From a virus, in IMG/VR virus record IMGVR_UViG_3300019776_000919, positions 105,714 through 169,713 of that record: a stretch of 64,000 nt of DNA; one strand, 5' to 3'. A program made the position numbers and the translations under genes. This document shows positions 18,537 through 51,262 of the stretch, one piece after another. Position 1 is the first letter of the stretch; each line of letters begins with the position of its first letter. The notes below the pieces were generated by a model that was not told where the DNA came from, did no database searches, and was given only the letters and a program-made list of their open reading frames with translations.

Positions 18537-18785
18537 TTATTCTGCTCTAGGCTTATCTATTAACAAATGAATACCTTTAGCCATCCCGTATCCAACCGCC
18601 CCGCCAATAAGACCTTCTTTCGGTATTCTGGATATTTTCTGTAATAAGCTTTGATTCTTATAGAAAGGGTGGGTAGCTCCTACTACTGCTCCCGTAAGAC
18701 CTAGCGCGGTCGGGTTTAAAAAGCTTCTATCTGAAATCGGTCTACTAGGTTGATTCTCAGATATTTTAACCAGGTACTTATTCAT
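18537..18785 (-). CDS. small Gly-rich protein with MNKYLVKIS N-terminal tag
   Basis: Tag shared with other proteins; glycine-zipper segments. Confidence 0.75.
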   Translation of the reverse strand: MNKYLVKISENQPSRPISDRSFLNPTALGLTGAVVGATHPFYKNQSLLQKISRIPKEGLIGGAVGYGMAKGIHLLIDKPRAE

Positions 18786-18812
18786 AAGTAATCTTTGATA
18801 AAAAAATGAAAA

Positions 18813-19211
18813 TCAATACTTAGCATGATAATGATCCCCTAATAATTTTGTATATTTATTAGTGAAATCTTTATATGCATATTCATGGCTTGCCACAGGA
18901 TTGCCTAATTTAGCCATATCGCTGGCATATACATCATGTAAAGCTTTGTGATCTTTTTTCAATTCCGGACCATGGACTTTAGAAGTAATAGCGTCAAAAT
19001 ACGCTTGACCACTTATAGACTTACTTTTAGATTTCAATGAAAGTTGTTTTTTTACATTATCGTTATGTCTATTGAAATGCTCTACGTATAAATTGTGTGA
19101 GTCATTCATAAATCTGTTGACTCTATCTTTAACTAAAGCATAATCGACCTTAGGTTCTTCTTTTTTATTGGAAAACGTAATTCCTGCAATTTTTTCTAAA
19201 TATTTATTCAT
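18813..19211 (-). CDS. hypothetical protein with MNKYLEKIA N-terminal tag
   Basis: Tag; ATGA overlap with the upstream helicase gene. Confidence 0.8.
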   Translation of the reverse strand: MNKYLEKIAGITFSNKKEEPKVDYALVKDRVNRFMNDSHNLYVEHFNRHNDNVKKQLSLKSKSKSISGQAYFDAITSKVHGPELKKDHKALHDVYASDMAKLGNPVASHEYAYKDFTNKYTKLLGDHYHAKY

Positions 19212-20674
19212 GATTGATCTTTCATAACTTGTTTAATTTGGTCAAAAACAACTTGCTTATCATCGCTCATACCTGATAAGTATTTGTCTATTGATACCGG
19301 GGCTTTACCAAACATAGGCTTAGGATGAACACTTAGATAATGTTCAATGTCCATATGTCTTTCCTCTTTTGGCAAGTGTTCATGAGATTCATATCTAGCC
19401 CCTCGTCCAACTACTTGCTTTATCTTGCTAGGGTTAAAGTGGGGTTCGAGTACTTGAGTTAGTTTAGTACCTTTAAGATCAAGCCCCTCTGCACCGGAGC
19501 TGGATACTAAAAGAACCTTAACTTTACCTGAATTGTAATTCTTTACCGCCTCATCTTTCTCCGCTTGACTTAGCTTGCCAGAAAACACTACGTGAGGAAT
19601 ATCCTCTTCACTTAGTTTTTTAGCATATTCATGTACACCGGCATCTAAATAATTGCTATAGACAAGACCTTTAAAATTCTTATCCGAACCCATTTTTGTT
19701 TTAAGATTTTCAACAGCCTTCTTTATCTTGGGAGTGTACTCGACATTTTCTGTGTCTTGATGCAGGTGACGATGAGAGTTAGAGACTTGACGAACTCCCG
19801 TTGAGAACGAATTTAACTGGGCTTTTTCTTGTTTATCTAAAGGGAGGTTATTTCTAATTTTCATTCTAAGCCAGAAAGGTATTTGACCTTCCATAAACTT
19901 ATACATTCTTCCTTGTTCAGGAGACATGTCTACTTCTATTGTTTTAGAAGAAGTAGTTGGAAATTTAGACTTAGATTCTGGATCGTCTTTTACATCGTAA
20001 TAAGAAACGTGATCCTTAAACAGAGACCCTAATGCTTTCTTATTTCTAAGTACATCCACTTCTTTGGCGGGATGACGTAACAATACTTCCGCCAGACTTC
20101 TAGGTACTTTTTCTTTACCTAAAAAATGCTTTTCAAATTCTTTTCTATTCTCAGGTAAAACCTTGCCGCCATAAGCCATATTCATGATAGGCGCAATATC
20201 AGCAGCATGGTTGTAGTTAGCAGTAGCAGTAGCTAACACTCTTTTGTCAGCGTCTTGAAATATTTCAGATAAAGCTTGAGTTCTTTTAGTTTCAGTATTG
20301 CGAAGACGTTGTGCTTCGTCGGCAATAGCTAGTACGTATTTATTTTTCTTTAGTTCTGGAGCTATTCTGGTAGCTTTTTCGTAAGAGTAAACATCAAGTC
20401 TTTTACGATCAATTTTTAACTTGTGTTTTTTAATCTCCTTATCTACGTTACTAACTAAGCTAGCGGGGGCTACAACCAATACCTTACCATCTTTATTCTT
20501 GGCTTGAGCACGTTCAGCGGCAACTAAGAAGCCACGAGTTTTTCCAGAGCCCGTTCCCCAGTGTAAAACTACACCATCATTTTTTTCTAGCTTGTCTAAA
20601 GCAGCTTCTACATGAGGGCGTTCCTTTCTACTCTCGGGTTCTGACTTAGCAATTTTCACCAGGTATGGATTCAT
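19208..20674 (-). CDS. SNF2-like SF2 helicase with MNPYLVKIA N-terminal tag
   Basis: GTGSGKT, ADEAQ, ATAT, EGLDLK, QVVGRGAR. Confidence 0.88.
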   Translation of the reverse strand: MNPYLVKIAKSEPESRKERPHVEAALDKLEKNDGVVLHWGTGSGKTRGFLVAAERAQAKNKDGKVLVVAPASLVSNVDKEIKKHKLKIDRKRLDVYSYEKATRIAPELKKNKYVLAIADEAQRLRNTETKRTQALSEIFQDADKRVLATATANYNHAADIAPIMNMAYGGKVLPENRKEFEKHFLGKEKVPRSLAEVLLRHPAKEVDVLRNKKALGSLFKDHVSYYDVKDDPESKSKFPTTSSKTIEVDMSPEQGRMYKFMEGQIPFWLRMKIRNNLPLDKQEKAQLNSFSTGVRQVSNSHRHLHQDTENVEYTPKIKKAVENLKTKMGSDKNFKGLVYSNYLDAGVHEYAKKLSEEDIPHVVFSGKLSQAEKDEAVKNYNSGKVKVLLVSSSGAEGLDLKGTKLTQVLEPHFNPSKIKQVVGRGARYESHEHLPKEERHMDIEHYLSVHPKPMFGKAPVSIDKYLSGMSDDKQVVFDQIKQVMKDQS

Positions 20675-21534
20675 TTTTGTTTATTTTCTAATTCTTTATC
20701 AACGTCTATACCGGGAGCAATACCCCAATTAAGCAACGCTTGTCTTCTTTTAGGTTGAACAGAGAGATCTTGCAGGGTAGGGTCAGCTTTTTGTAATTGA
20801 GCTAAATGCCTGGCTTTAAAGCTAATCCAACGTTTCATCTGACGCTCATCGTCATCGGTCCTCTTACCTGCCACATACCCTTTGTACCATTGATACCAAC
20901 CTTGGGGGTGTTCTTGATTGTGCCACGTATCAGGCCATTTGTCTAGGCTAGCTCGTACCTTGAAAAAATTGCCAGAAGGATCCCCGTCATTGTACTGAGA
21001 CCCTTTATGAACCAACACCCCTAATCGTTGCATTTGATCAGGGGTTAAATCTGGACGAAACTTAGTCCGAACTTCCTCACTGGAAACTGCAATCTTAGTT
21101 AGATATTTGTTTGAGTTCATTGTCGCCTTTTTTTCTAAACCTAGGTTTTTAAACAACCAAGGCTTACCTTTACCATACTTTGTTTCATCCAATTTCTTTA
21201 ACAAAAACCGAGACCCGTCCTTAGTAGAGATAACCAATTTATCTTCATCATCTTGGGGTTCTACCGTAGCTTTACGCACCCAGTCTAGATAAGTTACACC
21301 ACCGCCATATTCACCTTTAGGTATAACTACTTTTTTACTTAAAGCGTATTCTCTATCATGGACAGGTTGCTCAAAAAGGAGTATTGATTTACCCGGCTCA
21401 GGAAGTTCTTTTTTAGTAGCCCATGAATATGCCTTATCGCCTAGGACCATTCTATAATCCCAATGTAATCCCATTCGGTCAGCTTCGTGTCTCTGACGAG
21501 TAAATAATATTTGTTGACCTGATAGAGGATGCAT
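20671..21534 (-). CDS. LigD-type 3'-phosphoesterase domain fused to a domain of unknown function
   Basis: QRHEA..LHWDYR..SWA..EQPVH N-domain; C-domain FRPDLTP..GWYQWY..DDERQMKRW; internal MNSNKYLTKIA at the junction. Confidence 0.75.
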   Translation of the reverse strand: MHPLSGQQILFTRQRHEADRMGLHWDYRMVLGDKAYSWATKKELPEPGKSILLFEQPVHDREYALSKKVVIPKGEYGGGVTYLDWVRKATVEPQDDEDKLVISTKDGSRFLLKKLDETKYGKGKPWLFKNLGLEKKATMNSNKYLTKIAVSSEEVRTKFRPDLTPDQMQRLGVLVHKGSQYNDGDPSGNFFKVRASLDKWPDTWHNQEHPQGWYQWYKGYVAGKRTDDDERQMKRWISFKARHLAQLQKADPTLQDLSVQPKRRQALLNWGIAPGIDVDKELENKQK

Positions 21535-21550
21535 TGTAATTGAGTAATCT

Positions 21551-21587
21551 AAAAAATAGAACCTGGATTATACCAAGTTCTATTTTA
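21551..21587 (-). terminator. hairpin terminator overlapping promoter-like TAAAAT and TGGTATAAT
   Basis: AAAATAGAAC-TTGG/CCAG-GTTCTATTTTTT stem on the - strand. Confidence 0.55.
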
Positions 21588-21600
21588 GCTTTCCTGTATT

Positions 21601-23163
21601 TTAGAAAGGAAGATTGCCGTAGAATTCAGGCTTAGCCATCAAACTTAGCAATTCTTTTCTCGTAGCAGGAGAACCTTCAATTGAATTTACAAATTCTTCA
21701 ACTTTCTTGTTTTTTGCATCAATTATGATTTTATGAAATCTCGGTTCTTTTGCTAAAATCCCCATAATGTCATTGATTCTAACTTTAGTAGAGATTGAGC
21801 TATTACGCCTTTCCAGGAAAAATGTCAATATTTTTCGTAAAGCATTTATCTTAGGGATATTTTCAAACGGGTGATCTTTGTTATTAATTCGACTGAACAT
21901 TTCTAAACAAATCGAATCAAATTGACCTTCTGGATTCCAATATGACCTGGATGTGATTGCAGTATAAAAACTGCTAAGGGAATACCCGTTGCTTGAAGTA
22001 TTTTCGTAGAATGGTACGAAATCAGATAACTTAATTTTTTCCTTGAAAATTTCTTCCTTATTATCAATAATTGATATATGAGATTCCCATGTATTCGGGT
22101 CCGCATTTAGAAACGATAGGGTTAAGGATTTATCTAACCGAGGTATACCAAATAATTGATAGTCTGGAACTTTAAAAAGGACACTTGCAACATCTGTTGT
22201 TTTATTGACAGGGCCGCCTGGAATTCTAAATTGATAGTTGCTGATCCAAAAATGACAAATTTTGGATTTAACAATTCCGGAATTTAAATCACCGGCAGTT
22301 ACTTTTACGTAATAGCTCAAACAAATGCTAGCAGGGATATTCCTAGCCCCGTCTTCATAGACCTCAAACACATTTATCAGTGTTAATTCCGTATTGAGCT
22401 TAGAGTATCCCAATGCATTATGTAGACTAACACCTGTTAAAATTACCGGTGTTGATCTTGTACTTTCTGCAACCGCTCTAGTATTAGAACTACTAGATTG
22501 GAAAAGATATCTAATAGCTAAATAGAAATTTCTTATGCTACTTGCTTTTTCTGCGTGCAGTTCGTAATGACTTTCATAACGATTTAGTTTTCTGCCAGCA
22601 ATCTCCATCAAATCCTTTTGGTCAAATTTTATACCATGAATTCTTTTAACGGAACTGTCTAAGACAATTTCATTCATTAACGGTTTAATCTTCAGGGTAT
22701 TAAGTACATAAGATTCCCAACCGGTAATTTGACCCAGTGACCAAGCAGACCTGTCAAAACACAAAGGGGTTACGTCATTAAGCTGATAATCAGACTTAAC
22801 ACCCCAACCAGCTTTGGACGGGGTAATAGAAGCATCCCCCCAGTTTATACTATCTTCAAAATCTAAAGAGTAAGGGTCAAATCTAGTGACAGCCCCGTCC
22901 GCAATACCAGCGGTTCTGGGGGTTTTTGCAAAAACACCCTGTACCTTTACAAATTTAGGTATCTTGAACCCTTTGACGTATTCTGCTCCAGGTACGTTTT
23001 CAAGAGTAGTACTCATTTTGAAAGACTCAAACTGAGGATACATACCGTCTGGAATAGAATTAGGTTGACCTAAAACAGAAGGTATTTTATTTGAAAGGGT
23101 TTCTTTAATAAGCTCTGGAACAGTTTCTGTTGATTCCAGTTTCACTTCAAAATCTGAACTCAT
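21601..23163 (-). CDS. hypothetical protein
   Basis: 520 aa ORF with its own TGGTATAAG motif. Confidence 0.8.
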   Translation of the reverse strand: MSSDFEVKLESTETVPELIKETLSNKIPSVLGQPNSIPDGMYPQFESFKMSTTLENVPGAEYVKGFKIPKFVKVQGVFAKTPRTAGIADGAVTRFDPYSLDFEDSINWGDASITPSKAGWGVKSDYQLNDVTPLCFDRSAWSLGQITGWESYVLNTLKIKPLMNEIVLDSSVKRIHGIKFDQKDLMEIAGRKLNRYESHYELHAEKASSIRNFYLAIRYLFQSSSSNTRAVAESTRSTPVILTGVSLHNALGYSKLNTELTLINVFEVYEDGARNIPASICLSYYVKVTAGDLNSGIVKSKICHFWISNYQFRIPGGPVNKTTDVASVLFKVPDYQLFGIPRLDKSLTLSFLNADPNTWESHISIIDNKEEIFKEKIKLSDFVPFYENTSSNGYSLSSFYTAITSRSYWNPEGQFDSICLEMFSRINNKDHPFENIPKINALRKILTFFLERRNSSISTKVRINDIMGILAKEPRFHKIIIDAKNKKVEEFVNSIEGSPATRKELLSLMAKPEFYGNLPF

Positions 23164-23196
23164 AATGGTTAGACTTAAATTGGTTAATGTATTTTT

Positions 23197-23205
23197 CTTA
23201 TACCA
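23197..23205 (-). promoter_or_regulatory. TGGTATAAG promoter-like motif
   Basis: Exact copy upstream of 23163. Confidence 0.65.
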
Positions 23206-23261
23206 GAAATACTAGATATTTGTAATTGCATCTAATACTTCTTTACTGCTAAAATATAACC

Positions 23262-25088
23262 ATGTCTGAAAAGTTAACAACTCCTGGTGCAATATTACTT
23301 AAGCACTCTATGCCCAATAAAGAAACTAGGGATGACTATGATCTATATAGACCTTTGGATAAAAAAGGCGTAGCCAACGTAGTAGCATCTTTAATGAAGC
23401 ATGGTGGACCTGAAGCCGCTGAACACATAAATAGTTTGGGTAAATTATTCTTTAACACTGCAAGTGAAATCGGGGCCTCAACCCCTTTGTCAGACTACGT
23501 TAATAATAGTGATGAAAGACACGCTATTACTAATGAGTATGAAATGAAAGTAAACAAGATTATGCTTTCAGATAAATCAAAAGCTCAAAAGAATAATGAA
23601 CTTAAAGAACTTACCGGACAATACAACTTAAAGATCGAAGACCAAAACTTAGCGTTTTTAGATAGTAAGGGCTCAGTAGCTGCTAAGATGGCTAGAACGG
23701 GTGCCCGAGGAAATAAAGCTCAGTTGGCCAGTGGTACTGCCACTCCTCTAATGTCTTTGAATGTTAAGGGTGAGTTGATCCCGTTAGTTATTAAGAAAAG
23801 CTTTGCTGAAGGTATGACTCCGGCTGAATTAATAGCTTTGAGTTACATGGGCAGAAGTTCGACTGTAATGTCTCAGTTAAGTACATCTTTACCTGGAGCA
23901 TTGTTTAAAAAGCTTTCACCTACTGTATTTCATGAAGTTATTACAACAGATGATTGCGGCACTAAGAACGGAATAGATGTTCCTACTGAAGATAAATCTA
24001 GTCTGCTAGGTAGATACACTGCAGGTTATAGTGTTTTAATCACCGAACCTTACTTGAAAGATGCAATCAATTCCGGCAAGAAAAACTTAAAAGTTAGAAG
24101 TGCCTCTACTTGTGAAGCTAAAGAAGGTGTGTGTCAAAAATGTTTTGGATTAATGGCTAACGGTAGATTACCCGAGATCGGGACTAATGTAGGCGTTATT
24201 GCTGCTCAGAGCGTTTCAGAAATTCTAACCCAGCGCATGTTAAGTACAAAGCACCAAGCCAACGTTGGAGCCCGTAAGGGTAATGCGTATGAGTTAGCCG
24301 CCAATCTTATGAATAACCCCACGGAGAACTTTAAAGATGAGGCTACCTTGTCTACTAAGAACGGCATAGTGAACGATATTAAGAAGACTGCACTGGATGC
24401 CTCTCATGTTTACATTGACGGTAAAATGCATTTCGTACCTATTGAACAACAAGTCTTGGTTCAAAAAGGTGACACGGTAAAAATTGGACAACCTATTTCT
24501 ACCGGCACTTTGAACCCTAGAAAGTTGGTAGATTTACGAGGTATCGGGGCCGGTAGAGAATACATGGCTAAAGAACTGAGAAGTATTTACGGAGGTGATT
24601 TAGATCCTCGCCATTTTGAAATTATCGCTAAAAATTTGATTAAGTATGTAGAAGTACAAAACCCTGGTAATACTGGACTTCTACCGGGAGATAAGGTAGA
24701 AGTTAACACTATTCGTAAGTATTTGGATAAAGGATCTGCTGCTGTACATATTAATAAAGCAGAGGGTAGTGTGTTATCCAAAGGAGTTGGTAACTTAGTA
24801 CCTGGCACTTTATTGGACAAAAATCACATCGATGATTTAAAAGAATTAGGAGTAGAGTCAGTATCCGTGAGCAATACTGGATTGACTGTCAAGCCTATTG
24901 TCCCAGGCCTACAAACCGCTAAGATGCTAGATAAAAATTGGGTTTCTAAATTAAGTTTTTCAAGGTTGAGAGATTCATTAAAAGAAAGCACTGCTACCGG
25001 GGCAGAAAGTGAAATTCACAGCACTGATCCTATTGCTAGTTATGTAATGGGTTCAGAGTTTGGCGAAGGCGTACATGGTAAGTATTAA
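23262..25088 (+). CDS. rpoC: RNA polymerase beta' C-terminal subunit
   Basis: TGARG, SFAEG, DCGT, C....GVCQKCFG Zn site, trigger-loop GVIAAQSVSE..TQ...TKH, RHFEII. Confidence 0.9.
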   Translation: MSEKLTTPGAILLKHSMPNKETRDDYDLYRPLDKKGVANVVASLMKHGGPEAAEHINSLGKLFFNTASEIGASTPLSDYVNNSDERHAITNEYEMKVNKIMLSDKSKAQKNNELKELTGQYNLKIEDQNLAFLDSKGSVAAKMARTGARGNKAQLASGTATPLMSLNVKGELIPLVIKKSFAEGMTPAELIALSYMGRSSTVMSQLSTSLPGALFKKLSPTVFHEVITTDDCGTKNGIDVPTEDKSSLLGRYTAGYSVLITEPYLKDAINSGKKNLKVRSASTCEAKEGVCQKCFGLMANGRLPEIGTNVGVIAAQSVSEILTQRMLSTKHQANVGARKGNAYELAANLMNNPTENFKDEATLSTKNGIVNDIKKTALDASHVYIDGKMHFVPIEQQVLVQKGDTVKIGQPISTGTLNPRKLVDLRGIGAGREYMAKELRSIYGGDLDPRHFEIIAKNLIKYVEVQNPGNTGLLPGDKVEVNTIRKYLDKGSAAVHINKAEGSVLSKGVGNLVPGTLLDKNHIDDLKELGVESVSVSNTGLTVKPIVPGLQTAKMLDKNWVSKLSFSRLRDSLKESTATGAESEIHSTDPIASYVMGSEFGEGVHGKY

Positions 25089-25094
25089 TTAAAT

Positions 25095-25901: not shown

Positions 25902-25913
25902 CTCAATTATACA

Positions 25914-25926
25914 TACGAACTAAAAT
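25914..25926 (+). promoter_or_regulatory. + strand promoter-like motif TACGAAYTAAAAT
   Basis: Same 13-mer at 28549 and 56330, all intergenic before structural genes. Confidence 0.6.
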
Positions 25927-25959
25927 AAGCTATAATCCCACAACAGTAACTAAATAATT

Positions 25960-27879
25960 ATGGAATTCTCAGACATCGCTTTGGCTAAGTTTTTGCAAGT
26001 TGCCCCGGAACTAGGCCCCTACATTCTTAACTTCTCAAAGATTAATGATGAAATGGGGGATGCTACTTCGGGAGTAGAAGTTGGTGTATTTATTCTCAAT
26101 ACCGGTTCCGGCCTAGCGTATGTGCCGGTTATTGGTAAGGGTGATACAGTATTCCCTATTGATTCTATTTTCCTAGAATCGGAATCTCTGTTTAGACCTT
26201 TGAGCCCTTCTAGTATTTCATACATAGTAAATACTGCATCAACAAGCTTAGGTAAAACTGTTAAGATTCCAGACACTGTTGACCAAAATCCAAGTTTGAT
26301 GAACATGATCAATCCTCCTAGGACTGGTAAGTTCATATACGCGTCCGCTAGTAGACTGCCAGAATTCCTAGCCGTTGTACCAGGAAACATCAGAAAAGCT
26401 CTGTTTGAAAAAATTGCATCCGAGCAAAGTGTTTACACTTCCCTGGATAAACTGTTTGGCCTCAAGGCTATTTTCTCTGTTCTCAATGGGGATCATGGCG
26501 GCTCCGGCGTAGCTAACAATGTTGCTTCCGGACCCGATGCAGTTAGAGTAAACAATCTTTCTGTAATCACCACACCTCAAGAAGTAAAAGCTCTTTTAAA
26601 TGACGCTGCTGCCAAAACTTTCTTGGATCAAGGCTATGTAATTCAAGGCGAACCTGGAGCTTTCAGAGCTGCCGTATCATACTTTCCGTATGATAAGATT
26701 GGTCAATACTTTAAGATTAATCCCGCATCAGACGGTGGAAAAGACTATAAGATTGCAATGGGTAATGGAGAGGTAAATACTGCTTTCATTCCTAAATACC
26801 ATTTGCTAAATCCCGTACCCTCTAAGAACTCTTTGGCTGCTGTATTTGCAGACGGTAGCTATGCTACTGGAGAAATGATTGCAGTTGGCGGACCTCTTCT
26901 AAAAGAAGATGTATTGAATTTAGTATTTTCACTAAACCCCCCGATCCTATTAAAAGAGTTAAATCAACAAGACAGATTCCTGATTTTTACTACCTCTGGA
27001 GAAGCATTAGGCCCCTTTACTGCTCACGGAGTTATTCGTACCAGCATGGGCGTTGAGATCAAAACTTATTCCGGTAAAGTAAAACGTATTTGTGGTTATA
27101 ATAATTTCACTAAAGAAGTTGATCAAGTAGGTGATACACTATTTGTACCCTTTAATGCAATCGTCCTTCCATTAAGAGAAGATGTCACGTTAGACCTAGA
27201 ACGAAGCATTAATGGGGCTTTAAACAAACAAGAACTTTGTGCATCACAACTATTGAGTCAGGAAATGAATCTCCGTTATGACGGAGTAGAGTTTTCAACT
27301 GACGACAGAGTCCTTGGTAAATTTGCCTCTGCTATGAAGTATCTAGTAGAGGGTGAGAATATTGAACCAGACGTAGCTAGCAATTTCCTGAAACAAGCTG
27401 AAGAAACTAGTTACTTGAAGATCTTCATGTCTAAGGAAGCATCTGCTGCTTCTACTGATTTCAAGCCAGCAGAAATTCCTCAGTATGGTACTTCGGCACC
27501 TATGGATCAACAAGTTGGTTTAAACGGGGCGCTAATCCCGTCAATACAATCATCAACTGCTTTAGGGGATTCTCAAGTAGTTGAATCAACTATTATTTCC
27601 CAACTGCTGCAAGTACCTGATTTATTTGAATATATTCAGGAATACTTGCCTGAACTAGAACAAACAGTTGATAGACTGGGTAGAATTCTATTCATGACTC
27701 GTGCTAAAATTGATCAAATTTCAGCGTCGTTGGATTCGGATTCTGTTTTCAGCATGATTTCTCAGATTAAAACAGTTTATCGCCAACTCGGAGATACTAC
27801 CTTGAAGCTCAAGGGTATGTCTAATATGGCAATCGGCTATAAGAGAGAAGACGCTGAGAATACACCTCAAGGCTCTTAA
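25960..27879 (+). CDS. putative head/core protein
   Basis: 639 aa ORF in the head block; FEKIAS, LGKFAS, MSKEAS motifs. Confidence 0.6.
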   Translation: MEFSDIALAKFLQVAPELGPYILNFSKINDEMGDATSGVEVGVFILNTGSGLAYVPVIGKGDTVFPIDSIFLESESLFRPLSPSSISYIVNTASTSLGKTVKIPDTVDQNPSLMNMINPPRTGKFIYASASRLPEFLAVVPGNIRKALFEKIASEQSVYTSLDKLFGLKAIFSVLNGDHGGSGVANNVASGPDAVRVNNLSVITTPQEVKALLNDAAAKTFLDQGYVIQGEPGAFRAAVSYFPYDKIGQYFKINPASDGGKDYKIAMGNGEVNTAFIPKYHLLNPVPSKNSLAAVFADGSYATGEMIAVGGPLLKEDVLNLVFSLNPPILLKELNQQDRFLIFTTSGEALGPFTAHGVIRTSMGVEIKTYSGKVKRICGYNNFTKEVDQVGDTLFVPFNAIVLPLREDVTLDLERSINGALNKQELCASQLLSQEMNLRYDGVEFSTDDRVLGKFASAMKYLVEGENIEPDVASNFLKQAEETSYLKIFMSKEASAASTDFKPAEIPQYGTSAPMDQQVGLNGALIPSIQSSTALGDSQVVESTIISQLLQVPDLFEYIQEYLPELEQTVDRLGRILFMTRAKIDQISASLDSDSVFSMISQIKTVYRQLGDTTLKLKGMSNMAIGYKREDAENTPQGS

Positions 27880-27887
27880 GATTAACA

Positions 27888-28529
27888 ATGGCACAAGTAC
27901 ATGCCAAATTTCTTTTAGTAAGACAAAAAACTACGGGGGTTGATGCCACCGTAGATGCAATTCTTTCTGGAAAACCAGAGGACAAAGATACTAGGGCTTT
28001 ATTTGATAAGGCCCGTAGTATTTATAATTCCCCGATTAAAAAAAGCTACGTAGAAGCTTGCTTAATGGCAACCACGGACATGGATAAGATAGGTGAACTA
28101 TTATCCATGTCAAGAGAGTTGTTAGAGATGTATAAAAACATCTTCTTTGACATAGAGGGTTATGACAAGCTAAGCTTGATGGAGGTAATTGAAAATGCCG
28201 ACTCTCCCGATGAAAAAGGAATGAAGATTTGGGCATTGAGTCAAGGCCTGGACTTCGTAGCTTGGAGACTTGGAAAAGCCGTTAGTATTAATCCTGTTGA
28301 AGGCTTGCAGGAATTATTTACCTTAGCTGTCTATAAGAGTAAGGAAGCTTTATTCTCAGGTAAAGATACTGAGGCTAGTAAAGCTGCTACTACTTGGACA
28401 AAACTGAGTATGGACTTAGCCCGTATTCTTAAAGCTTGGGTGTCAGACTCGGAAGCTGCTAAAGCTGATATTGAATTGGCTTTGAAATCTATTGACCCTG
28501 AATTCCAAGGGTTTGACTCCATACAATAA
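27888..28529 (+). CDS. hypothetical protein (head block)
   Basis: 213 aa ORF in operon. Confidence 0.7.
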   Translation: MAQVHAKFLLVRQKTTGVDATVDAILSGKPEDKDTRALFDKARSIYNSPIKKSYVEACLMATTDMDKIGELLSMSRELLEMYKNIFFDIEGYDKLSLMEVIENADSPDEKGMKIWALSQGLDFVAWRLGKAVSINPVEGLQELFTLAVYKSKEALFSGKDTEASKAATTWTKLSMDLARILKAWVSDSEAAKADIELALKSIDPEFQGFDSIQ

Positions 28530-28548
28530 AACTAATACTTATTAGGCC

Positions 28549-28561
28549 TACGAATTAAAAT
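28549..28561 (+). promoter_or_regulatory. + strand promoter-like motif TACGAATTAAAAT
   Basis: Motif copy ending 6 nt before ATG 28568. Confidence 0.6.
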
Positions 28562-28567
28562 CAACTT

Positions 28568-29635
28568 ATGGCAACTATTACCATTCAAGATCTACAAGAA
28601 ATCGCTGTGCAAGCCACTAGTGATTTTTTTAACAATCAAGTCCCTCTGAATCAATCCCTTGCTAAGCAGGCATCTGAGCGTGGACTTAATTCGGAACAGC
28701 TAAAAAGAGCTATTGAGACTACTAATACTTTGACTCATTTAAAGAGTATTGAAGTATCCAAGGATAGAACCGTAGAGTTTCCTGTTGCAGACTACACGTC
28801 AATTGTTAAAATGGCTTCAGTCCCTAATTTGACTGGCCCAGAAGACGAAGACGTACCTGACGGAGATGCTCACGGCTTCGTAGAAAAAGCAGCTTCTGCA
28901 GAAAGCATCCTAGCATACACTCCTCCTGATATGACGGAGAATGAGAAAATGTTGCATCTGCAGAAAGCTGCGCATATTAATAAAGTTGCTTTGGAAAACG
29001 CTCAAATTAATTTGAGAATTACCGGAGAAACTCTTCTAAAACAGGCTTTCGAACTAAGAAAAGACCCTCAGTTTATAGAGCATCTTTCAGCATCTTCTGC
29101 CGATAGTTTTCAATTTGAAAAGATTTCTACTCTTGTTTTAGGATCTATCGTTGATAGAAAAGATTACACAAACGGTATGTTTAAATCTGCTCAATTGAAT
29201 GAAGTAGAATCATTTGTTTCTCTTTACAAGCAGGCCAGTGAATTGACTTCTGAAATCAAAACCAGAAAGAATATGGACGAACGCTGGGAAATGATTAAAC
29301 AAGCTTCCATTTTAGGTTCTCTTGCTCAAGGGGTGGCTAAGTATACAACGAAAGCAGTGGTTGCCCCGGCTAAGTTAATGGGAAAAGCAATATCGGCTCC
29401 ACTAGTAGCAGGAGCCGGGGTTGTTGGAAGACGGGTTAACAATGCTATTGCCAGTACCGGTGCAGGCAAAGCCGCAGGATTCACACCTAAACCTACTAAC
29501 CCCGCGTTAGCTAAAAAAGTTATGGCTGTAGGAACTGGAGTAGGCATGGCAGCTATGGATGCCTCTGCTTTTGAGCCAAAATCTGATCCTATGGGGTATG
29601 GTCAAGGCCGTATCTGGGATAATCTACAAAGATAA
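28568..29635 (+). CDS. putative head core protein rich in K-x-A motifs
   Basis: LAKQAS, IVKMAS, VEKAAS, LYKQAS, MIKQAS; Gly/Ala-rich C-terminus. Confidence 0.65.
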   Translation: MATITIQDLQEIAVQATSDFFNNQVPLNQSLAKQASERGLNSEQLKRAIETTNTLTHLKSIEVSKDRTVEFPVADYTSIVKMASVPNLTGPEDEDVPDGDAHGFVEKAASAESILAYTPPDMTENEKMLHLQKAAHINKVALENAQINLRITGETLLKQAFELRKDPQFIEHLSASSADSFQFEKISTLVLGSIVDRKDYTNGMFKSAQLNEVESFVSLYKQASELTSEIKTRKNMDERWEMIKQASILGSLAQGVAKYTTKAVVAPAKLMGKAISAPLVAGAGVVGRRVNNAIASTGAGKAAGFTPKPTNPALAKKVMAVGTGVGMAAMDASAFEPKSDPMGYGQGRIWDNLQR

Positions 29636-29648
29636 ATTGAGAACAAAA

Positions 29649-30179
29649 ATGAACGAACAAATTCAAGAACTTTACGAATACGGCTTGGAAAAATACGCCG
29701 GAGATAAGACCGCTGCTAAAGATTTTGTAGTGGCTTTTATAAAAGAGGCTAGTGGTGCTGAAGTTGCTAAGCTGGGATGGAATACTGTAGGTAGATCTGC
29801 CCTACAAGCCTTGGGTGGAGCGTCGGTAGGTATTGGTGTAGGGTTAGGTATTCATGGGCTGTCTAGTATGATAAACGCCGCAGGTAATGCGGGTTTACAC
29901 GCTAAATTTAAAGAAGCTTTCAGTAAGGCTATCGCTATGAATCCCGTAGTTGCAGAGGGTCATAGATCAGAACCCGCTAAAGTAGATTCTTATGCGGAAA
30001 CCATTTTTAAGTTTGCTCCTCATGTTGCCTGTGATGCTAATTTACTAAGTACTGTTTTAGCTAATGCCGTACATGGTGAAAACGTAGATCCTACTATTAT
30101 TAAGTCTATTGTTGACCTAGAGTCCAAGCTTATCGAGACTCGTAAAAATTCTTTATTCACTCCTAAAACCTATCTATAA
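29649..30179 (+). CDS. putative head core protein with glycine zipper
   Basis: Start moved to ATG 29649 to avoid overlap; LEKYAG, FIKEAS; GGASVGIGVGLGIHG. Confidence 0.65.
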   Translation: MNEQIQELYEYGLEKYAGDKTAAKDFVVAFIKEASGAEVAKLGWNTVGRSALQALGGASVGIGVGLGIHGLSSMINAAGNAGLHAKFKEAFSKAIAMNPVVAEGHRSEPAKVDSYAETIFKFAPHVACDANLLSTVLANAVHGENVDPTIIKSIVDLESKLIETRKNSLFTPKTYL

Positions 30180-30180
30180 A

Positions 30181-30444
30181 ATGGACAAGTCTAGCAAGTT
30201 ACTAGATTGGGCTGAAAAGTCCATCACTGAACTTAAGAATATGCCTATTCATAATAAGATAGGGTTAGGATTAGGCGTAACTTCACTTGGGCTAGGGTTA
30301 GTAAACTACCATAATAATAAAGTTAAATTAGATATGGATAAAGCAAGAATTGATCTAGATAAAGAGAGAGTTAATTTAGATATGAAATCCCTTTCTGCTT
30401 TACAAAAAATCCACAAAGCTTTATCAAAAAAATCTAACATCTAA
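30181..30444 (+). CDS. small protein with Gly-rich hydrophobic segment and coiled coil
   Basis: IGLGLGVTSLGLGL; repeated LDxDKxR. Confidence 0.7.
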   Translation: MDKSSKLLDWAEKSITELKNMPIHNKIGLGLGVTSLGLGLVNYHNNKVKLDMDKARIDLDKERVNLDMKSLSALQKIHKALSKKSNI

Positions 30445-30452
30445 ATTACCCC

Positions 30453-31976
30453 ATGTTAAAACTTATAGACATAGACTCTTCTTTCTTCAATGAAGAGCCT
30501 GTGGTTAGAATTATAAACACTGATTCTAATTTTCCATTGGAGAAGACTGCAGCTGATTCTAGGATAAATACTTTTATCTCCGATCTTAAACCGGAACAAG
30601 ATAAAATATACGTCCACATTTTAGCTATGGGGGCTGGGGAATACTTTGGGGCTAATAGAAATGCAGACTATTTCCCTGAAGATAATCTTATCAAATGGCA
30701 TGATACATTTAGAACGTCTCCTGCGCATATCTTTAAGCATCACATAAATAAAAATCCTGAGATTGCTATTGGTAAGGTCATTTTTTCCGTATACAACGAA
30801 AGAATGCACAGAGTAGAAGTTATTGCTTGGATTGATAAGAAAAAAGGATGGGATGTAGTTGATAAAATCGAGAGGGGTGAGTTCCCTGCTACTTCAATGG
30901 CGTGCCATACTCCGTATGATACTTGCTCTATTTGTGGAAACAAAGCTAGATCTCGTAATGAATATTGCTCTCATTTAAGAGGTGAACTGGGTAAAGTCCA
31001 TCCTACTGGTGAAAAAACCATGGCCATCAATGATGGAGCCCTTAAGTTTTTTGATATGTCAGTAGTATTTAAACCTGCAGATGTTACTAGTAGTGTATTA
31101 CAAAAAGTTGCTTATGCTGATCAATCTATTACCGGTTCTGCAGAGTCTGCGGAAATGATGGGTTTAGGTGAAAAAACTACTGAACTTAAAAAGTTAAGTT
31201 CGATGATTAAAGAGATTGAAGGAACTATGATCAATTCCTCAGACTCTTTAAAAGCAATCTTAGACAAAGTTAAGGACCCAGAAGAAGAAGTAATTTCTCT
31301 TTTAGAAGATTTAGAACTTGATCACGTAATTCATGCATTTGCAGAATTAGGCATCTCACCGTCTGTAGGGTTTTTTGCTAAGTTAATCGGTAGAAAAATT
31401 TGTGGCGAGGATGTCGCCGGAATAGAGACGTTAGTAAAAGGTTTAATTCAAGTAGACGGTGATAAGGTACATGTACCGGAACAAGGTCTTTCTAAAGTTG
31501 CATCTACCTATGAAGTAAACCATGCAATTTCTATACTGTCGCCTATGACTAAACAATGTTCTATTTTCCCAGACATTGTTATGCAAAGAGAGCTGGAAAA
31601 TTCAAACCCTGGATTTATACATCAAAGCGGGTTGGATTATATGAATTCTTCCAATGTAGGATATATCGGTAATGGACCTTATCCTGCTGCAGACCCTAGA
31701 AAAACATATTTACATTTGAGAGACGTTTACAGAGAGAAAAACTCAGATGGCTCTAGTATTTTGAAAACTTTATTTACTATCGGTGGCGCAGCAATAGCCG
31801 CTAAATGGCTAGTGTCGAAACTTATCGAAAGTAAAATGCAGGAACTTAGAGAAGAAATTCGCAAAGATAATTCTTCCCCAGTTAAAATAGTATTAGTTAA
31901 ATCGGCTGAACAAGCTTTCACTACTCAACAATTAGTTAAAGCATCCCTCTTGAATAGTTTAAAAACTGGGTTATAA
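30453..31976 (+). CDS. prohead (maturation) protease with Zn-finger insertion
   Basis: NRNADYFP, FKHH.N, TSMAC..CSICGN..YCSH, FFDMSVVFKPAD; lies upstream of scaffold and capsid genes. Confidence 0.75.
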   Translation: MLKLIDIDSSFFNEEPVVRIINTDSNFPLEKTAADSRINTFISDLKPEQDKIYVHILAMGAGEYFGANRNADYFPEDNLIKWHDTFRTSPAHIFKHHINKNPEIAIGKVIFSVYNERMHRVEVIAWIDKKKGWDVVDKIERGEFPATSMACHTPYDTCSICGNKARSRNEYCSHLRGELGKVHPTGEKTMAINDGALKFFDMSVVFKPADVTSSVLQKVAYADQSITGSAESAEMMGLGEKTTELKKLSSMIKEIEGTMINSSDSLKAILDKVKDPEEEVISLLEDLELDHVIHAFAELGISPSVGFFAKLIGRKICGEDVAGIETLVKGLIQVDGDKVHVPEQGLSKVASTYEVNHAISILSPMTKQCSIFPDIVMQRELENSNPGFIHQSGLDYMNSSNVGYIGNGPYPAADPRKTYLHLRDVYREKNSDGSSILKTLFTIGGAAIAAKWLVSKLIESKMQELREEIRKDNSSPVKIVLVKSAEQAFTTQQLVKASLLNSLKTGL

Positions 31977-32031
31977 TTCAGTCAATTTAGTTAAGAATAA
32001 TCTAAACAGAAAACCAAGGATAAAAAATAAA

Positions 32032-33969
32032 ATGGATCTAACTCTTGATCAACTGCTAGCTAGTTTTGAAACTGGCATGCAAAAATCAGCGTCGGAAGGC
32101 GAAGATAAGAAAGAAGAAGCTAAAGACGAGAAAAACGAATTCCCCTTCAAAAAGAAGGATGAAGAAGTTTCAGAAAAGTCTGAAGAAAAAAAGGACGAAG
32201 ATGAGTCTAAAGATGAATCCGAAGGCCAAGAAAAAGAAGCTTCACTAGCTGGTGCCGCTTTGGCTCGTGAAGTAATGCAAAAAGTAGCATCACTCAACCT
32301 GGACAATGGAATGAATAAACAAGCCTCAACCGCCGGTCAAGCACTGGCTCGTGCCCTTCTAAAGAAGGCCTCTGCTGGAGACGTATCTACGACAAACGGC
32401 ATTACCTCGGAAGCTGTTCCGAATAAGTCTCAAGTAGACAACGCTGAAATGGAAGCTGAAGGCGCTGCTGCTATTAAGGCCCTGCCTACTGGCGACGGCG
32501 TACGTAACTACGGAACCGTTAATGAGATTTTTGATGCGATGATTCAAGACGCTCTTGCACAAGGCGCTGCTTCAACTGATCAAGTTCATGAGCGTGGCGT
32601 TGCTAAGAATGAAGGTGCTGTTCTGGAACATGCTGTTCCGAATCAAATCAAAGTTGCCGCTATGAACGCCCTGATGCAAGGTGGTTTTGATTTTGACACT
32701 GCTGCCCAACTCTTGAAGTCTGCCGAAAGAAACGATCATAAAATTGAAGGATATATTTCCCCCGCTTGGCAAGAAAATGCCATTGCTAAGGACCACGGTA
32801 AAGAAGGCCTTAAGGGCGTAGGCGCTAATGTAAGTAAACACATTACCGGAGGCCTTAGAGTAGCTGGACGGGGATATCTAGAAGGTTTTGGCGGCAGCGT
32901 TGCCGGAGGTCTAATAGGCCAAGCTGTTGGGCTTGCAGGTAAAAATGCCCATGCTGTTAGAACCGGAACAAGTGTCGGAGCTACTTTAGGTGGACTTGGC
33001 GGCTTGGCTCATGGCGTTTATTCCTCTCTGAAAAACCAAGCTGATGAAGCCCATAAGAAGTATGCTTCAGAACAAGACCAATCGCAAGACGAAATCGAAA
33101 AGGCCGCCGCCATTTCCCATCTGGTCGCTAATGGCGTTAATTTTGACGACGCTTTTGAAATGGTTAAACAAGCCGAAGCTGAAATTGCTTTTGAAATGGA
33201 AAAAGCCGCTTGTCTGGAAACCCTGATCAATGAAGGTGTAGATTATGATTCAGCCGTTGAGTTGGTTAAGCAAGCTGCTGCTGGTGATCTGAACACTACT
33301 GATGGTGTTAATCCTGGCTCGGTTCCTAATAAGAACCAAGAAGACAACGCTCAGATGGAAGCCGAAGGCGCTGCTACGGTAAAGCCGCTGCCCACTGGTA
33401 ACGGTATTGCTGCTCAAGGTAATGTAAACCAAATTTTTGACGCCATCGTAGATGATGCTCTGGCTCAAGGCGCTGCTTCAAGTGACCAAGTTCACGAGCG
33501 TGGTGTATCGAAAGCCGAAGGTGCTGTAGAAGCTCATGCCGTTCCTAATCAGGTTAAGGTCGCTGCCATGAATAAGCTGTTGGAAGCCGGTGTTGATTTT
33601 GAAAAAGCTGCTGAAATTGTTAAGCAGGCTGGTGCCGCTGCAATTCCCAGTTTTCTCACCAAAGTAAGAGGCAACGCCATTAACGCTGTCAAAGATGCTA
33701 AGGCCCTAGTTGGAGCTGGTCCTAGCCGGTTCCCGATGGCTCCGGATTCAAAAGGCATGATCCGTCCTTTGAAGAGAGACAGTGCAATGGGATTGGTTAA
33801 GAATCCTGTGGTTCAAGCTGGAGCTGCTACCGCCGCTGCCGGTGCCGGCGCTGCTGCCCTGAGTCGTGAAAAGAAAGCTGCCGTCGATATGCTGACGGAA
33901 GCCGGTATTGACTTTGACTCAGCTGTAAGCTTGGTTAATGAAAAGGCCGCTGAACTGTACGGTGAGTAA
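32032..33969 (+). CDS. scaffold/core polyprotein-like protein with internal repeats
   Basis: Acidic N-terminus, ~17 K-x-A/S motifs, 117 aa duplication. Confidence 0.65.
   Translation: MDLTLDQLLASFETGMQKSASEGEDKKEEAKDEKNEFPFKKKDEEVSEKSEEKKDEDESKDESEGQEKEASLAGAALAREVMQKVASLNLDNGMNKQASTAGQALARALLKKASAGDVSTTNGITSEAVPNKSQVDNAEMEAEGAAAIKALPTGDGVRNYGTVNEIFDAMIQDALAQGAASTDQVHERGVAKNEGAVLEHAVPNQIKVAAMNALMQGGFDFDTAAQLLKSAERNDHKIEGYISPAWQENAIAKDHGKEGLKGVGANVSKHITGGLRVAGRGYLEGFGGSVAGGLIGQAVGLAGKNAHAVRTGTSVGATLGGLGGLAHGVYSSLKNQADEAHKKYASEQDQSQDEIEKAAAISHLVANGVNFDDAFEMVKQAEAEIAFEMEKAACLETLINEGVDYDSAVELVKQAAAGDLNTTDGVNPGSVPNKNQEDNAQMEAEGAATVKPLPTGNGIAAQGNVNQIFDAIVDDALAQGAASSDQVHERGVSKAEGAVEAHAVPNQVKVAAMNKLLEAGVDFEKAAEIVKQAGAAAIPSFLTKVRGNAINAVKDAKALVGAGPSRFPMAPDSKGMIRPLKRDSAMGLVKNPVVQAGAATAAAGAGAAALSREKKAAVDMLTEAGIDFDSAVSLVNEKAAELYGE
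32374..33630 (+). repeat. 351 bp in-frame duplication (32374-32724 and 33280-33630)
   Basis: AGD..T.G...VPNK.Q.DNA.MEAEGAA...DALAQGAAS.DQVHERGV...HAVPNQ.KVAAMN occurs twice. Confidence 0.9.
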
Positions 33970-34002
33970 TTTGGAAGACCTGGGAAACTAGGTCTTTTAA
34001 AA

Positions 34003-34542
34003 ATGACTAACAAGTACATTACTAAAATCGCATCTCACGGGATCTCTGATAAAGTCAGGGATCCTGATTTAGCTCGTGCCGCTGGAAAAGGCTTTTTATA
34101 CGGGTCTGTCGGATCTGCTATTGGAGCCAGGGGCGGCGGACTGACTTCTTTGATTGGTGCCGTTGCAGGCGGATATCATGGATATAAGTCTTCTTTAAAG
34201 AACCAGCTCAAAGATCAACAACTCCATGACATTAAACTTCAGGGGGCGGCTCAACGGCAAGAACTCCATGAAGCTAAAATGCATAAGATGGCGGAAGAAA
34301 AAGATCCCCGCAAAGGTTTAAAAGAAGCCATCAACGTCGGTACTATTGCAGGGTTGGGTGGATTGGCTACTTTTGGTGCAGCTAAAGCTACAAACAAATT
34401 ACTGCCGGTAATTGCAAAAAAATTCCCCAAGGTAACTCATAATGGTCTGTTGACCGGACTGGGTACTATCGGTGGTTTGGCTGCAGATTACGCAGGGCTT
34501 AAAATCGGTGATGCAACTAACAAACACATAGACAAATTATGA
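34003..34542 (+). CDS. Gly-rich putative internal virion protein with MTNKYITKIA tag
   Basis: Tag; two glycine-zipper modules separated by MHKMA. Confidence 0.7.
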   Translation: MTNKYITKIASHGISDKVRDPDLARAAGKGFLYGSVGSAIGARGGGLTSLIGAVAGGYHGYKSSLKNQLKDQQLHDIKLQGAAQRQELHEAKMHKMAEEKDPRKGLKEAINVGTIAGLGGLATFGAAKATNKLLPVIAKKFPKVTHNGLLTGLGTIGGLAADYAGLKIGDATNKHIDKL

Positions 34543-35132
34543 AACTGTCAACACTACTATACAAACAAGCTCAAGAGCTTCGCACTCAATCCACAGAATA
34601 TGTGGCGGTTGATCTTCTGAAAAAGGCTGGCATGGATGAAACTCAAGCCAGATTTGAAGTAGCTCAAAAGCTGATGGAAAAAGAAGCTACTGACTATTTG
34701 GTTAACTCTGGGATTGATTATGACACTGCATTGGAAATGGTTAAGATTGCCAACGTCAATGTAAAAGAGTTGGCTTCATTTAAAGTGGAGCCTTCGGAAG
34801 AAGAAGTTCTTTCTTTGAATATTGAAAAAGCTGCCGGGTTAGCAAAAGAGTTGGAAGAAAAGGTTGCTGACTATGATTCCCTGTTGGAAAAAGTAGCTCA
34901 ACTGGAAGCTCAATTGGCCGATAAACCGGAAGTTGAAACTGTATCTGAACCAATGCAGAAGTTTGCTAAGTCAGGTGCGTTTACAAATGAAGATTTGGAA
35001 GCCCTTAGAAAGCTTTCTACGGAAACCTTATCTAAAGTAGCATCATTGTCGGAACAGCCTTGGTCTTTAGGTAAGTCAGATCATTCAGATGTTGAATCAT
35101 TAGATCCGCTTGCTCAATTCTGCTTAAGCTAA
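34539..35132 (+). CDS. coiled-coil scaffold-like protein rich in K-x-A motifs
   Basis: Shares the EKxA..L...GIDYD.A..MVK.A module with 32032..33969. Confidence 0.65.
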   Translation: MKLSTLLYKQAQELRTQSTEYVAVDLLKKAGMDETQARFEVAQKLMEKEATDYLVNSGIDYDTALEMVKIANVNVKELASFKVEPSEEEVLSLNIEKAAGLAKELEEKVADYDSLLEKVAQLEAQLADKPEVETVSEPMQKFAKSGAFTNEDLEALRKLSTETLSKVASLSEQPWSLGKSDHSDVESLDPLAQFCLS

Positions 35133-35134
35133 AA

Positions 35135-35383
35135 ATGAATAAGTATTTACTAAAAATAGCAAGTATGTGGACTTCGGGGGAGACAGTATCTCCTCCGAAT
35201 CCTCATGTATTCAACCCGTCTTCTCCTCATTATGCACCTAGAGTGGCTAGAAGATCAGCTCTTCTAAAGGGGGCCGGAGGGTTAGCTGCAGGGCTTGGAG
35301 CTGGATATTTAGCAATAAAAGCTCTTAATCATTCTTCTGATCAAAACAACCAATATCAAGACTACTCTCAGTATGGCCAATAA
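35135..35383 (+). CDS. small protein with MNKYLLKIA tag
   Basis: Tag; GAGGLAAGLGAG glycine zipper. Confidence 0.75.
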   Translation: MNKYLLKIASMWTSGETVSPPNPHVFNPSSPHYAPRVARRSALLKGAGGLAAGLGAGYLAIKALNHSSDQNNQYQDYSQYGQ

Positions 35384-35702
35384 ATACCTAGAGAAAATTG
35401 CTCTTAATAAGTTTGAACAAAAAGTATCATCTGGGATTATCTCCAATGATCCTCGTGTTCAAGCAGTCGCTTCTAAACTAGAAGACTCTAAGAAGTTTTT
35501 ATCTAAATATCCGCATTCCCATGTAAATGAGTTAGTGGATCTACATAAAGACTTTAGTCCAGTAAGAGAAGCACGGGGTAAGTATCGTTCTGCATTAGGA
35601 TCAAACCCGGTTACTCACTTTAAAAACGTGGGTGATAGCTTGGCTCATGGAGCCCCTAGTATTGCTAAGAAGCTTTCTTTTTTAGCTAGAGTACGTGGAT
35701 GA
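35373..35702 (+). CDS. small protein with MANKYLEKIA tag
   Basis: Tag; overlaps both neighbours. Confidence 0.75.
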   Translation: MANKYLEKIALNKFEQKVSSGIISNDPRVQAVASKLEDSKKFLSKYPHSHVNELVDLHKDFSPVREARGKYRSALGSNPVTHFKNVGDSLAHGAPSIAKKLSFLARVRG

Positions 35703-36193
35703 ATCGGTACCTTGAAAAAATAGCATTGAATAGGTTTGAGCAGTATTTAGCTGCTCAGCCTAAAGATCGTATTTTCAAAAACCAACAAGTTCAAAAGACT
35801 TATAACTCTGTTCAGAAATCAGAGCAACTAGGTAGAATTGGTCATAAGATGAATTCTCTCGGTGGAGCCGGAGATAATTATCTAAAGCAATCTAGAGATG
35901 AACTTAGAAATAGCCGTGGTAAATTTGGAGTTTGGGATAAGGAAACTCAACCCAATAGAGCTTTTAAAAAACCAGAAGACGTAGCAGCTAAGAATGCTAA
36001 AAAACCCGTTATAGATAAACGTATCAAGGCTCCTAAATTTGATCCTTTAAAACGTTTAGCTGAGTCTGAATATAGGTACAAGCCTATAGTAAGAACTCCA
36101 GCTAGTAAAGGGATGAAAGCCCTGGCTGCATTAGCTGCTGCTGGTGGGGCTGGATTAATTGGTTACGGAATAAAGAAAAATATAACGGAATAA
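35699..36193 (+). CDS. basic protein with MNRYLEKIA tag
   Basis: Tag; C-terminal ALAALAAAGGAGLIGYG. Confidence 0.75.
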   Translation: MNRYLEKIALNRFEQYLAAQPKDRIFKNQQVQKTYNSVQKSEQLGRIGHKMNSLGGAGDNYLKQSRDELRNSRGKFGVWDKETQPNRAFKKPEDVAAKNAKKPVIDKRIKAPKFDPLKRLAESEYRYKPIVRTPASKGMKALAALAAAGGAGLIGYGIKKNITE

Positions 36194-45833: not shown

Positions 45834-45871
45834 GTTCCTTGCCCTCAATAAGGATGGTTGATTACACTATT

Positions 45872-51232: not shown

Positions 51233-51262
51233 CTTATACCAATATTACAACTTTATATTGAA
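51233..51262 (-). promoter_or_regulatory. conserved promoter-like motif TTCAA-N16-TGGTATAAG
   Basis: Exact copy upstream of 51213. Confidence 0.75.

Follow-up and report, generated by a model that had tools for sequence, protein, structure and literature searches.

A shared N-terminal tag as a candidate capsid-targeting propeptide in uncultured relatives of Salmonella phage Arash

Uncultured phages that sequence comparison unites in a single clade, with Salmonella phage Arash as a relative, place a short peptide, (M)(x)-N-K-Y-L-E-K-I-A, at the start of many otherwise unrelated proteins. This tag is probably a portable capsid-targeting propeptide that resembles the capsid-targeting sequence (CTS) of phage T4 and is removed by the prohead protease. 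We analysed it in a 64,000-nt stretch of viral DNA, hereafter the window (IMG/VR record IMGVR_UViG_3300019776_000919, positions 105,714 to 169,713), which is the final 64 kb of the 169,713-bp genome, with direct terminal repeats, of an uncultured phage. In the mechanism we propose, the amphipathic tag, with Y, L, I and A on one face, would dock its carrier to the assembling head core through a putative receptor, and a protease of the gp21/assemblin fold would cut the motif [LMIVF]-x-K-x-A-[S/G/A] in the tag, in the capsid protein, in scaffold-like proteins and in itself. Because the tag ends in this consensus, it would be removed inside the prohead, and the cargo, comprising many small glycine-zipper proteins, very basic peptides and a few enzymes, would be held in the capsid until ejected with the DNA.

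Eight tagged proteins in one genome

A six-frame scan of the whole genome with the regular expression N[KRP]Y[LI]xKI[AS] returned eight matches, every one inside the window, and the same strict expression returned none in 200 shuffles. Seven of the eight tags sit zero or one residues past a start methionine. The tag Asn codons lie at 18782, 19208 and 20671 on the minus strand, at 34009, 35138, 35379 and 35702 on the plus strand and, for the eighth tag, at 21111 on the minus strand, internally, 152 amino acids (aa) into the open reading frame (ORF) 20671–21534. All eight sites named in an earlier reading of the window made from its letters and ORFs (the sequence-only reading) were thus reproduced by the ORF listing and the scan.

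The carriers are an SNF2 helicase, a fusion that includes a LigD-type phosphoesterase, and six small proteins for which Pfam and PHROG searches found no family. On the minus strand, these comprise an 82-aa protein with Gly-rich hydrophobic segments (18537–18785, starting MNKYLVKIS, tag codons 18759–18782); a 132-aa protein that starts MNKYLEKIAG and bears the consensus tag (18813–19211, tag codons 19185–19208); the 488-aa SNF2/SF2 helicase, starting MNPYLVKIA (19208–20674, tag codons 20648–20671; Pfam Helicase_C and SNF2-rel_dom, phrog_62); and the 287-aa fusion (20671–21534), in which a LigD-type 3′-phosphoesterase domain (PF13298, residues 14–81), the internal tag (codons 21088–21111) and a 140-aa domain without known family follow one another. 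The junction in this fusion reads GLEKKAT-MNS-NKYLTKIA, with a K-x-A-type motif 4 aa upstream of the tag, and the internal tag is kept in the closest relative, L038. On the plus strand, the carriers are a Gly-zipper-like protein of 179 aa that starts MTNKYITKIAS and belongs to a family common to tagged proteins of relatives (34003–34542, tag codons 34009–34032); an 82-aa protein with a Gly-rich C-terminal segment, starting MNKYLLKIAS (35135–35383, tag codons 35138–35161); and two proteins of 109 and 164 aa starting MANKYLEKIAL (35373–35702, tag codons 35379–35402) and MNRYLEKIAL (35699–36193, tag codons 35702–35725). These four lie between the scaffold-like gene (32032–33969) and the capsid gene (36726–37643), as the sequence-only reading had placed them.

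The same reading described the carriers as mostly unrelated after the tag and the conservation as acting on the peptide, and both descriptions hold. By BLAST, the carriers are mutually unrelated, with the exception of the paralogues 35373–35702 and 35699–36193 (29% identity over 112 aa, E-value 1e-6). Between copies, the tag codons differ synonymously at every degenerate position and the DNA upstream is unrelated, which argues for conservation and selection at the level of the peptide. For the same reasons, varying codons and unrelated upstream regions, a DNA-level element (promoter, ribosome-binding site or RNA motif) was ruled out as an explanation of the tag.

The helicase illustrates how the tag is attached. 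Its residues 19–486 align to residues 7–470 of Arash gp217, leaving the tag and a linker as an N-terminal addition, and helicase orthologues of other clade members bear either the tag or an NVY variant of it, in some cases with another K-x-A site ahead of the helicase core.

Conservation of the tag across the clade

The window capsid protein is 46–48% identical to those of Salmonella phage Arash and Vibrio phages D69, D148 and D181, the sole GenBank phages that match it; megablast of the region against GenBank phages gave zero matches. The clade probably infects Gammaproteobacteria, as Arash and D69 do. We collected the corresponding loci of relatives through the capsid protein and counted tag copies per 20 kb. 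Every relative with a major capsid protein at least 60% identical to that of the window has four to seven tag copies per 20 kb, and among the loci found in this way the tag is absent from Arash, D69 and more distant phages. A degenerate DNA pattern for NKYLEKIA matched 95 stretches on around 50 IMG/VR contigs, and the tag also occurs on two contigs from NCBI metagenome assemblies. By tblastn, nearly all tagged IMG/VR contigs belong to one lineage, with major capsid proteins 63–83% and proteases 47–57% identical to those of the window. A few IMG/VR matches in other phages (for example, ...TDGNKYLEKIAKLQT, C-terminal or internal) were discarded as chance, such matches in unrelated phages being removed before tagged proteins were counted. 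A literature search for NKYLEKIA returned no paper.

Across the clade, there are 164 distinct tagged proteins, in around 73 BLAST families. Numbering from the tag Asn, N1, Y3 and K6 are invariant in all 164, though the expression permitted alternatives, and the entropy over the eight tag positions is 0–0.8 bit versus 3.4–3.9 bit from the next residue onward. A methionine stands 1–3 residues upstream of the tag in 126 of the 164. Gly-rich hydrophobic segments occur in 92 of the 164 tagged proteins (56%) versus 18 of 223 proteins genome-wide (8%), and 15 tagged proteins are short and very basic; to judge from sequence, such cargo is in keeping with internal or ejection proteins. Enzymatic carriers comprise the helicase, with 12 orthologues, a ligase-like protein 452 aa long and a 260-aa protein with weak Tpt1/PARP-like (ADP-ribosyltransferase-like) similarity. 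The ligase-like protein (L037:9248-10606) starts with the tag and has a weak match to a ligase OB domain (E-value 0.0073, below Pfam's cut-off); the ATP-dependent DNA ligase of the window itself (17641–18525, minus strand, phrog_114) is untagged.

Internal tags number 35, and in 15 of them K-x-A-[SGA] stands within ten residues upstream, as in EMSKGAS-V-NKYLEKIA. This arrangement fits polyproteins cut on both sides of the tag by the same protease. In some relatives (L068/L120 and L064), the helicase ORF continues without a frame change into another tagged Gly-zipper protein, with the tag at residue ~506, or the helicase core is preceded by a tag ~100 aa upstream; such ORFs would be either fusions that arose naturally or nested genes that start internally.

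The K-x-A motif of the head module

The tag terminates in [LMIVF]-x-K-x-A-[SGA], and the sequence-only reading had already recognized this ending as a motif of the head proteins. The match is borne out by an approximately tenfold enrichment: the 14 proteins of the window head module, which is syntenic with Arash gp216–gp226, contain 26 sites versus 2.4 expected from per-protein shuffles (300 shuffles; maximum 6 sites), and the remaining genome contains 19 versus 12.4 expected. Control motifs with E for K, with S or G for A, or with the order reversed were not enriched. The enrichment is also present in the head modules of three tagged relatives and of the untagged phages Arash (26 sites versus 4.4) and D69 (33 versus 4.35). 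The motif occupies conserved positions, at residue 25 of the major capsid protein, at residue ~29 of the protease and at many sites in the scaffold-like protein. Enrichment and conserved positions in the untagged Arash and D69 indicate that the motif is older than the tag. From these statistics and positions, we infer that the K-x-A motif is probably a cleavage site of the prohead protease.

The major capsid protein (36726–37643, plus strand; 48% identity to Arash gp226, the major capsid protein of that phage) contains GMTKEAG at residues 25–31, a stretch conserved in Arash, D69 and L007 and a candidate cut site for a capsid propeptide. The scaffold-like protein (645 aa; 32032–33969, plus strand), with partial homology to Arash gp223, contains seven sites. 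It also has an internal duplication of ~100 aa (VPNK[SN]Q.DNA.MEAEGAA...VHERGV...AVPNQ.KVAAMN) and repeated A.EL[VI]KQA[SA] units. A 197-aa protein (34539–35132, plus strand), the orthologue of Arash gp225, has three K-x-A sites and a conserved C terminus. Four further head-module genes of the plus strand (25960–30179), encoding 639, 213, 355 and 206 aa, are orthologues of Arash gp218–gp221; three of them hold 3, 5 and 2 copies of K-x-A, and the 213-aa one holds none.

The prohead protease

By its predicted structure, the phage encodes a protease of the gp21/assemblin fold within the head module (30453–31976, plus strand; phrog_18299, a PHROG head-maturation protease). An AlphaFold model built on 39 homologues (mean predicted local distance difference test score (pLDDT) 73.8) has this fold at residues 44–208, followed by a helical C-terminal half. 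Residues 44–208 superpose on T4 gp21 (5jbl_B) with Z 10.9 and a root-mean-square deviation of 3.0 over 132 aa, and the next structural matches, herpesvirus assemblins with Z 6–7.4, fall clearly below gp21. H55, H97 and S148 are invariant across the 39 homologues.

Further invariants of this alignment are the motif residues K31/A33/D35, K218/A220 and K483/A485. LEKTAAD (residues 29–35) and LQKVA (residues 216–220) lie in low-pLDDT linkers that flank the protease domain, and invariant K-x-A motifs in linkers at the domain borders are what would be expected of autoprocessing sites. A complex prediction of protease residues 33–507 with the first 45 residues of the 132-aa tagged protein scored 0.00 and gave no answer, which is evidence neither way. 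Separately, C151, C158, C161, C172 and H174 are invariant within residues 151–174 of the protease, a pattern like a zinc-binding insertion; we know of no such insertion in T4 gp21.

Virion proteins and minimal tags in untagged relatives

The tagged helicase has gp217 as its Arash orthologue, which lacks the tag. In Arash virions, gp217 was identified by 38 unique peptides and 1148 spectra, alongside 1210 spectra for the RNA polymerase β′ subunit and 1333 for the major capsid protein, and gp218, gp220 and gp221 were also detected (PMC10585845). This abundance of the helicase in virions fits packaging of its tagged orthologue and lends that idea indirect support.

Arash and D69 have minimal N-terminal starts of the form M-x-K-x-A-S in 3–5 proteins versus 0 in a control stretch, and D69 has one proto-tag, LLEKIAA. 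In both phages, the large virion RNA polymerase β subunits (Arash 130093–134670, D69 143288–147871) begin M-P-K-[SK]-A-S, a minimal copy of K-x-A-S, and the orthologue in the window (10707–14099) starts without it. A basic 151-aa protein of D69 (161560–162015; L002:23217-23672) starts MDNVDTLLEKIAAKSKK and resembles the tagged basic peptides of the clade, MNKYLEKIAAKKK; its start could be a forerunner of the tag.

Weighing the explanations

The sequence-only reading proposed an independent, portable load-and-cleave signal for injected cargo. Its portable character is upheld by a near-invariant tag on around 73 families, and the enriched K-x-A motif, the gp21/assemblin-fold protease and the abundant helicase of Arash virions all agree with a signal tied to head maturation; that tagged proteins are packaged, cleaved and injected is what we infer from these observations together.

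Several observations weigh against a capsid-targeting propeptide. First, the tag-bearing phages are all uncultured. Second, Arash packages its helicase untagged, so the tag is not the sole route into the capsid, and the study of its virions names 116 'structural' proteins (PMC10585845), a list that makes contamination probable. Third, the residue following the tag is S (20%), G (13%), E (13%) or A (12%), and also L, K or V, whereas at the sites in head proteins it is S, G or A; further, the sequence fits a cut after Ala, as in herpesviruses, and a cut after the invariant Lys equally well. Fourth, the tagged repair genes lie on the minus strand outside the head operon, and the only promoter-like motif upstream of their operon belongs to a class that precedes nucleotide-metabolism genes. 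Finally, internal tags behind K-x-A-S could mean that the tag has to be exposed close to a new N terminus, and a role after cleavage fits this better than targeting before it.

The tag might be no more than a strong site, or a short inhibitory propeptide, for the prohead protease, with the carriers reaching the prohead by some other means and no targeting involved. Its final five residues do match the head-protein motif h-x-K-x-A, the untagged Arash helicase is packaged, and internal tags are found in polyprotein-like ORFs. We nonetheless consider this explanation unlikely: N1 and Y3 lie outside the cleavage motif yet are invariant over around 73 cargo families, the sites in head proteins have no extension of the N1/Y3 type, and trimming nine residues off dozens of unrelated proteins would have no obvious purpose unless the peptide acted before the cut.

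Alternatively, the tag could be an address that must stand within 1–3 residues of a free N terminus, made either by translation or by cleavage at K-x-A-S, and that would be read by a putative receptor inside the capsid to sort or order dozens of interchangeable cargo proteins after maturation. This we regard as quite unlikely. Were it true, the cargo would include a DNA end-repair set (helicase, phosphoesterase and ligase) injected with the genome, and the tag would be a compact, engineerable load-and-release handle under a protease of new K-x-A specificity.

A partner other than the capsid is very unlikely. Here the tag would dock its carriers to a replication or membrane hub or to the ubiquitin-like conjugation system of the phage, with the invariant Lys of h-x-K-x-A as acceptor. 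K6 is indeed invariant, the E1 and JAB proteins that the phage encodes beside a ubiquitin-like protein are matched by homologues in Arash and D69, two phages in which K-x-A is likewise enriched, and several carriers are DNA-repair enzymes whose genes lie outside the head operon. Against this, the motif clusters in proteins of the head module, in the disordered linkers that border the protease domain and near the N terminus of the capsid protein, a placement that matches the pattern of protease sites in T4 and herpesviruses; conjugation at a Lys needs no fixed place 1–3 residues from the N terminus. The distribution of the motif thus favours protease sites over ubiquitin-like conjugation at its Lys.

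That the shared start has no function and merely survives from gene duplication or from recombination where genes begin, as a reused cassette boundary, can be given very little credence: two adjacent carriers are paralogous and the tagged genes cluster in two variable loci, but codons differ synonymously and flanking DNA is unrelated, so the tag is not maintained by recombination at the DNA level, and the peptide stays the same even between phages with as little as 63% identity in their capsid proteins, while the residues following it are random.

Relation to known capsid-loading systems

A capsid-targeting propeptide would not be new in kind, as the T4 CTS and a signal of the P1 protein DarB have both been published. 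The CTS is a 10-residue N-terminal tag that ends in a gp21 site and is sufficient to load foreign proteins; its residues 4 and 7 serve targeting and residues 8 and 10 processing, gp21 cuts after Glu in (L/I)-x-E, and T4 also packages an enzyme, Alt (PMC9026906). Similar to the CTS, which is read from the T4 genome as MKTYQEFIAE↓A (↓, cut) and is carried by the internal proteins IPI–III, the tag described here is an N-terminal sequence of around ten residues common to otherwise unrelated, fast-changing small proteins, and it ends in what would be the cleavage motif of the phage's own protease. Counting from the methionine, M1, Y4, E6, I8 and A9 are identical (five of nine positions), a stretch too short to separate homology from convergence, and the window protease has the gp21 fold (Z 10.9). 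Because of these shared positions and this fold, the claim in the sequence-only reading that the signal is independent of T4 is uncertain. The differences are that the phage is Arash-like and outside the Straboviridae, with a capsid protein that has no Pfam match; that the probable motif is h-x-K-x-A-[SGA] as opposed to (L/I)-x-E; that the cargo is far broader, at around 73 families, including an SNF2 helicase, a ligase-like protein and a phosphoesterase; and that the tag, known here from sequence alone, also occurs internally, behind a second motif.

Herpesvirus assemblins (pUL26/UL80a) cut after Ala, at YLQA↓T and VQA↓S (PMC4498786). The window protease belongs to the same fold family (Z 6–7.4), its motif likewise has Ala followed by a small residue, and its protease domain is fused to a helical C-terminal half, with a junction site, LQKVA (216–220), like the R-site (PMC4498786). 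By contrast, an invariant Lys stands two residues ahead of the Ala here, and no portable cargo tag is known in herpesviruses. In phage P1, a 30-residue N-terminal signal of DarB suffices to direct this large enzyme, or a reporter in its place, into the capsid, from which it is delivered along with the DNA (PMC9024508). That signal has the same use as the one proposed here; it is longer, known on one protein only and not known to be a shared cleavable tag. Finally, in phiKZ-like giant phages, many head-internal proteins, including virion RNA polymerase subunits, are processed at a short motif by a gp21-like protease (gp245 in SPN3US), and Arash-like phages too carry an RNA polymerase in the virion. 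The motif of the giant-phage protease is S/A/G-x-E, and the propeptides of those phages are long and do not share one common tag.

If confirmed, a capsid-targeting propeptide in this clade would add a second family of short capsid-loading tags, distinct in sequence, found beyond the T4 group and with a far wider natural cargo (around 73 families). The clade would then inject a DNA end-repair kit (SNF2 helicase, LigD-type phosphoesterase and ligase) together with many small membrane-active and DNA-binding proteins, and its gp21-fold protease would have shifted to a Lys-x-Ala specificity nearer to that of herpesvirus assemblins. The tag of 8–9 residues, with its putative cleavage logo, would offer a ready-made means of loading phage capsids with proteins, and the K-x-A logo would let annotators predict which proteins of Arash-like phages, one of them cultured, are internal to the virion.

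Other features of the window

A promoter-like motif, TGGTATAAG, has exact copies in the window, all on the minus strand (2135, 7027, 7674, 17606, 23197, 45872, 47872, 51233 and 54656); on the plus strand, that of the head genes, the window has no exact copy. It usually has TTGTAAT 3–5 bases upstream and precedes minus-strand genes, mostly of nucleotide metabolism, and is likely an early or middle promoter class. Between the gene 21601–23163 and the tagged repair operon, the minus strand at 21555–21590 forms a hairpin, AGAACTTGG-TATAAT-CCAGGTTCT, with a T-run behind it; this resembles a terminator that happens to include the promoter-like TGGTATAAT. As a clue to the timing of the tagged repair operon, the promoter class led to no conclusion, the TGGTATAAG copy of this operon lying inside the terminator hairpin.

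A 438-aa protein (44532–45848, minus strand) matches phrog_1211, a PurZ-type adenylosuccinate synthetase (E-value 7e-56), and the phage may substitute 2-aminoadenine for adenine (a Z-genome). Near this gene are a nucleotidyltransferase (50134–51213) and a thymidylate synthase (51253–52170). Directly past the capsid gene, on the opposite strand, lies a 499-aa HNH/homing endonuclease (37695–39194, minus strand; phrog_559, E-value 1e-106).

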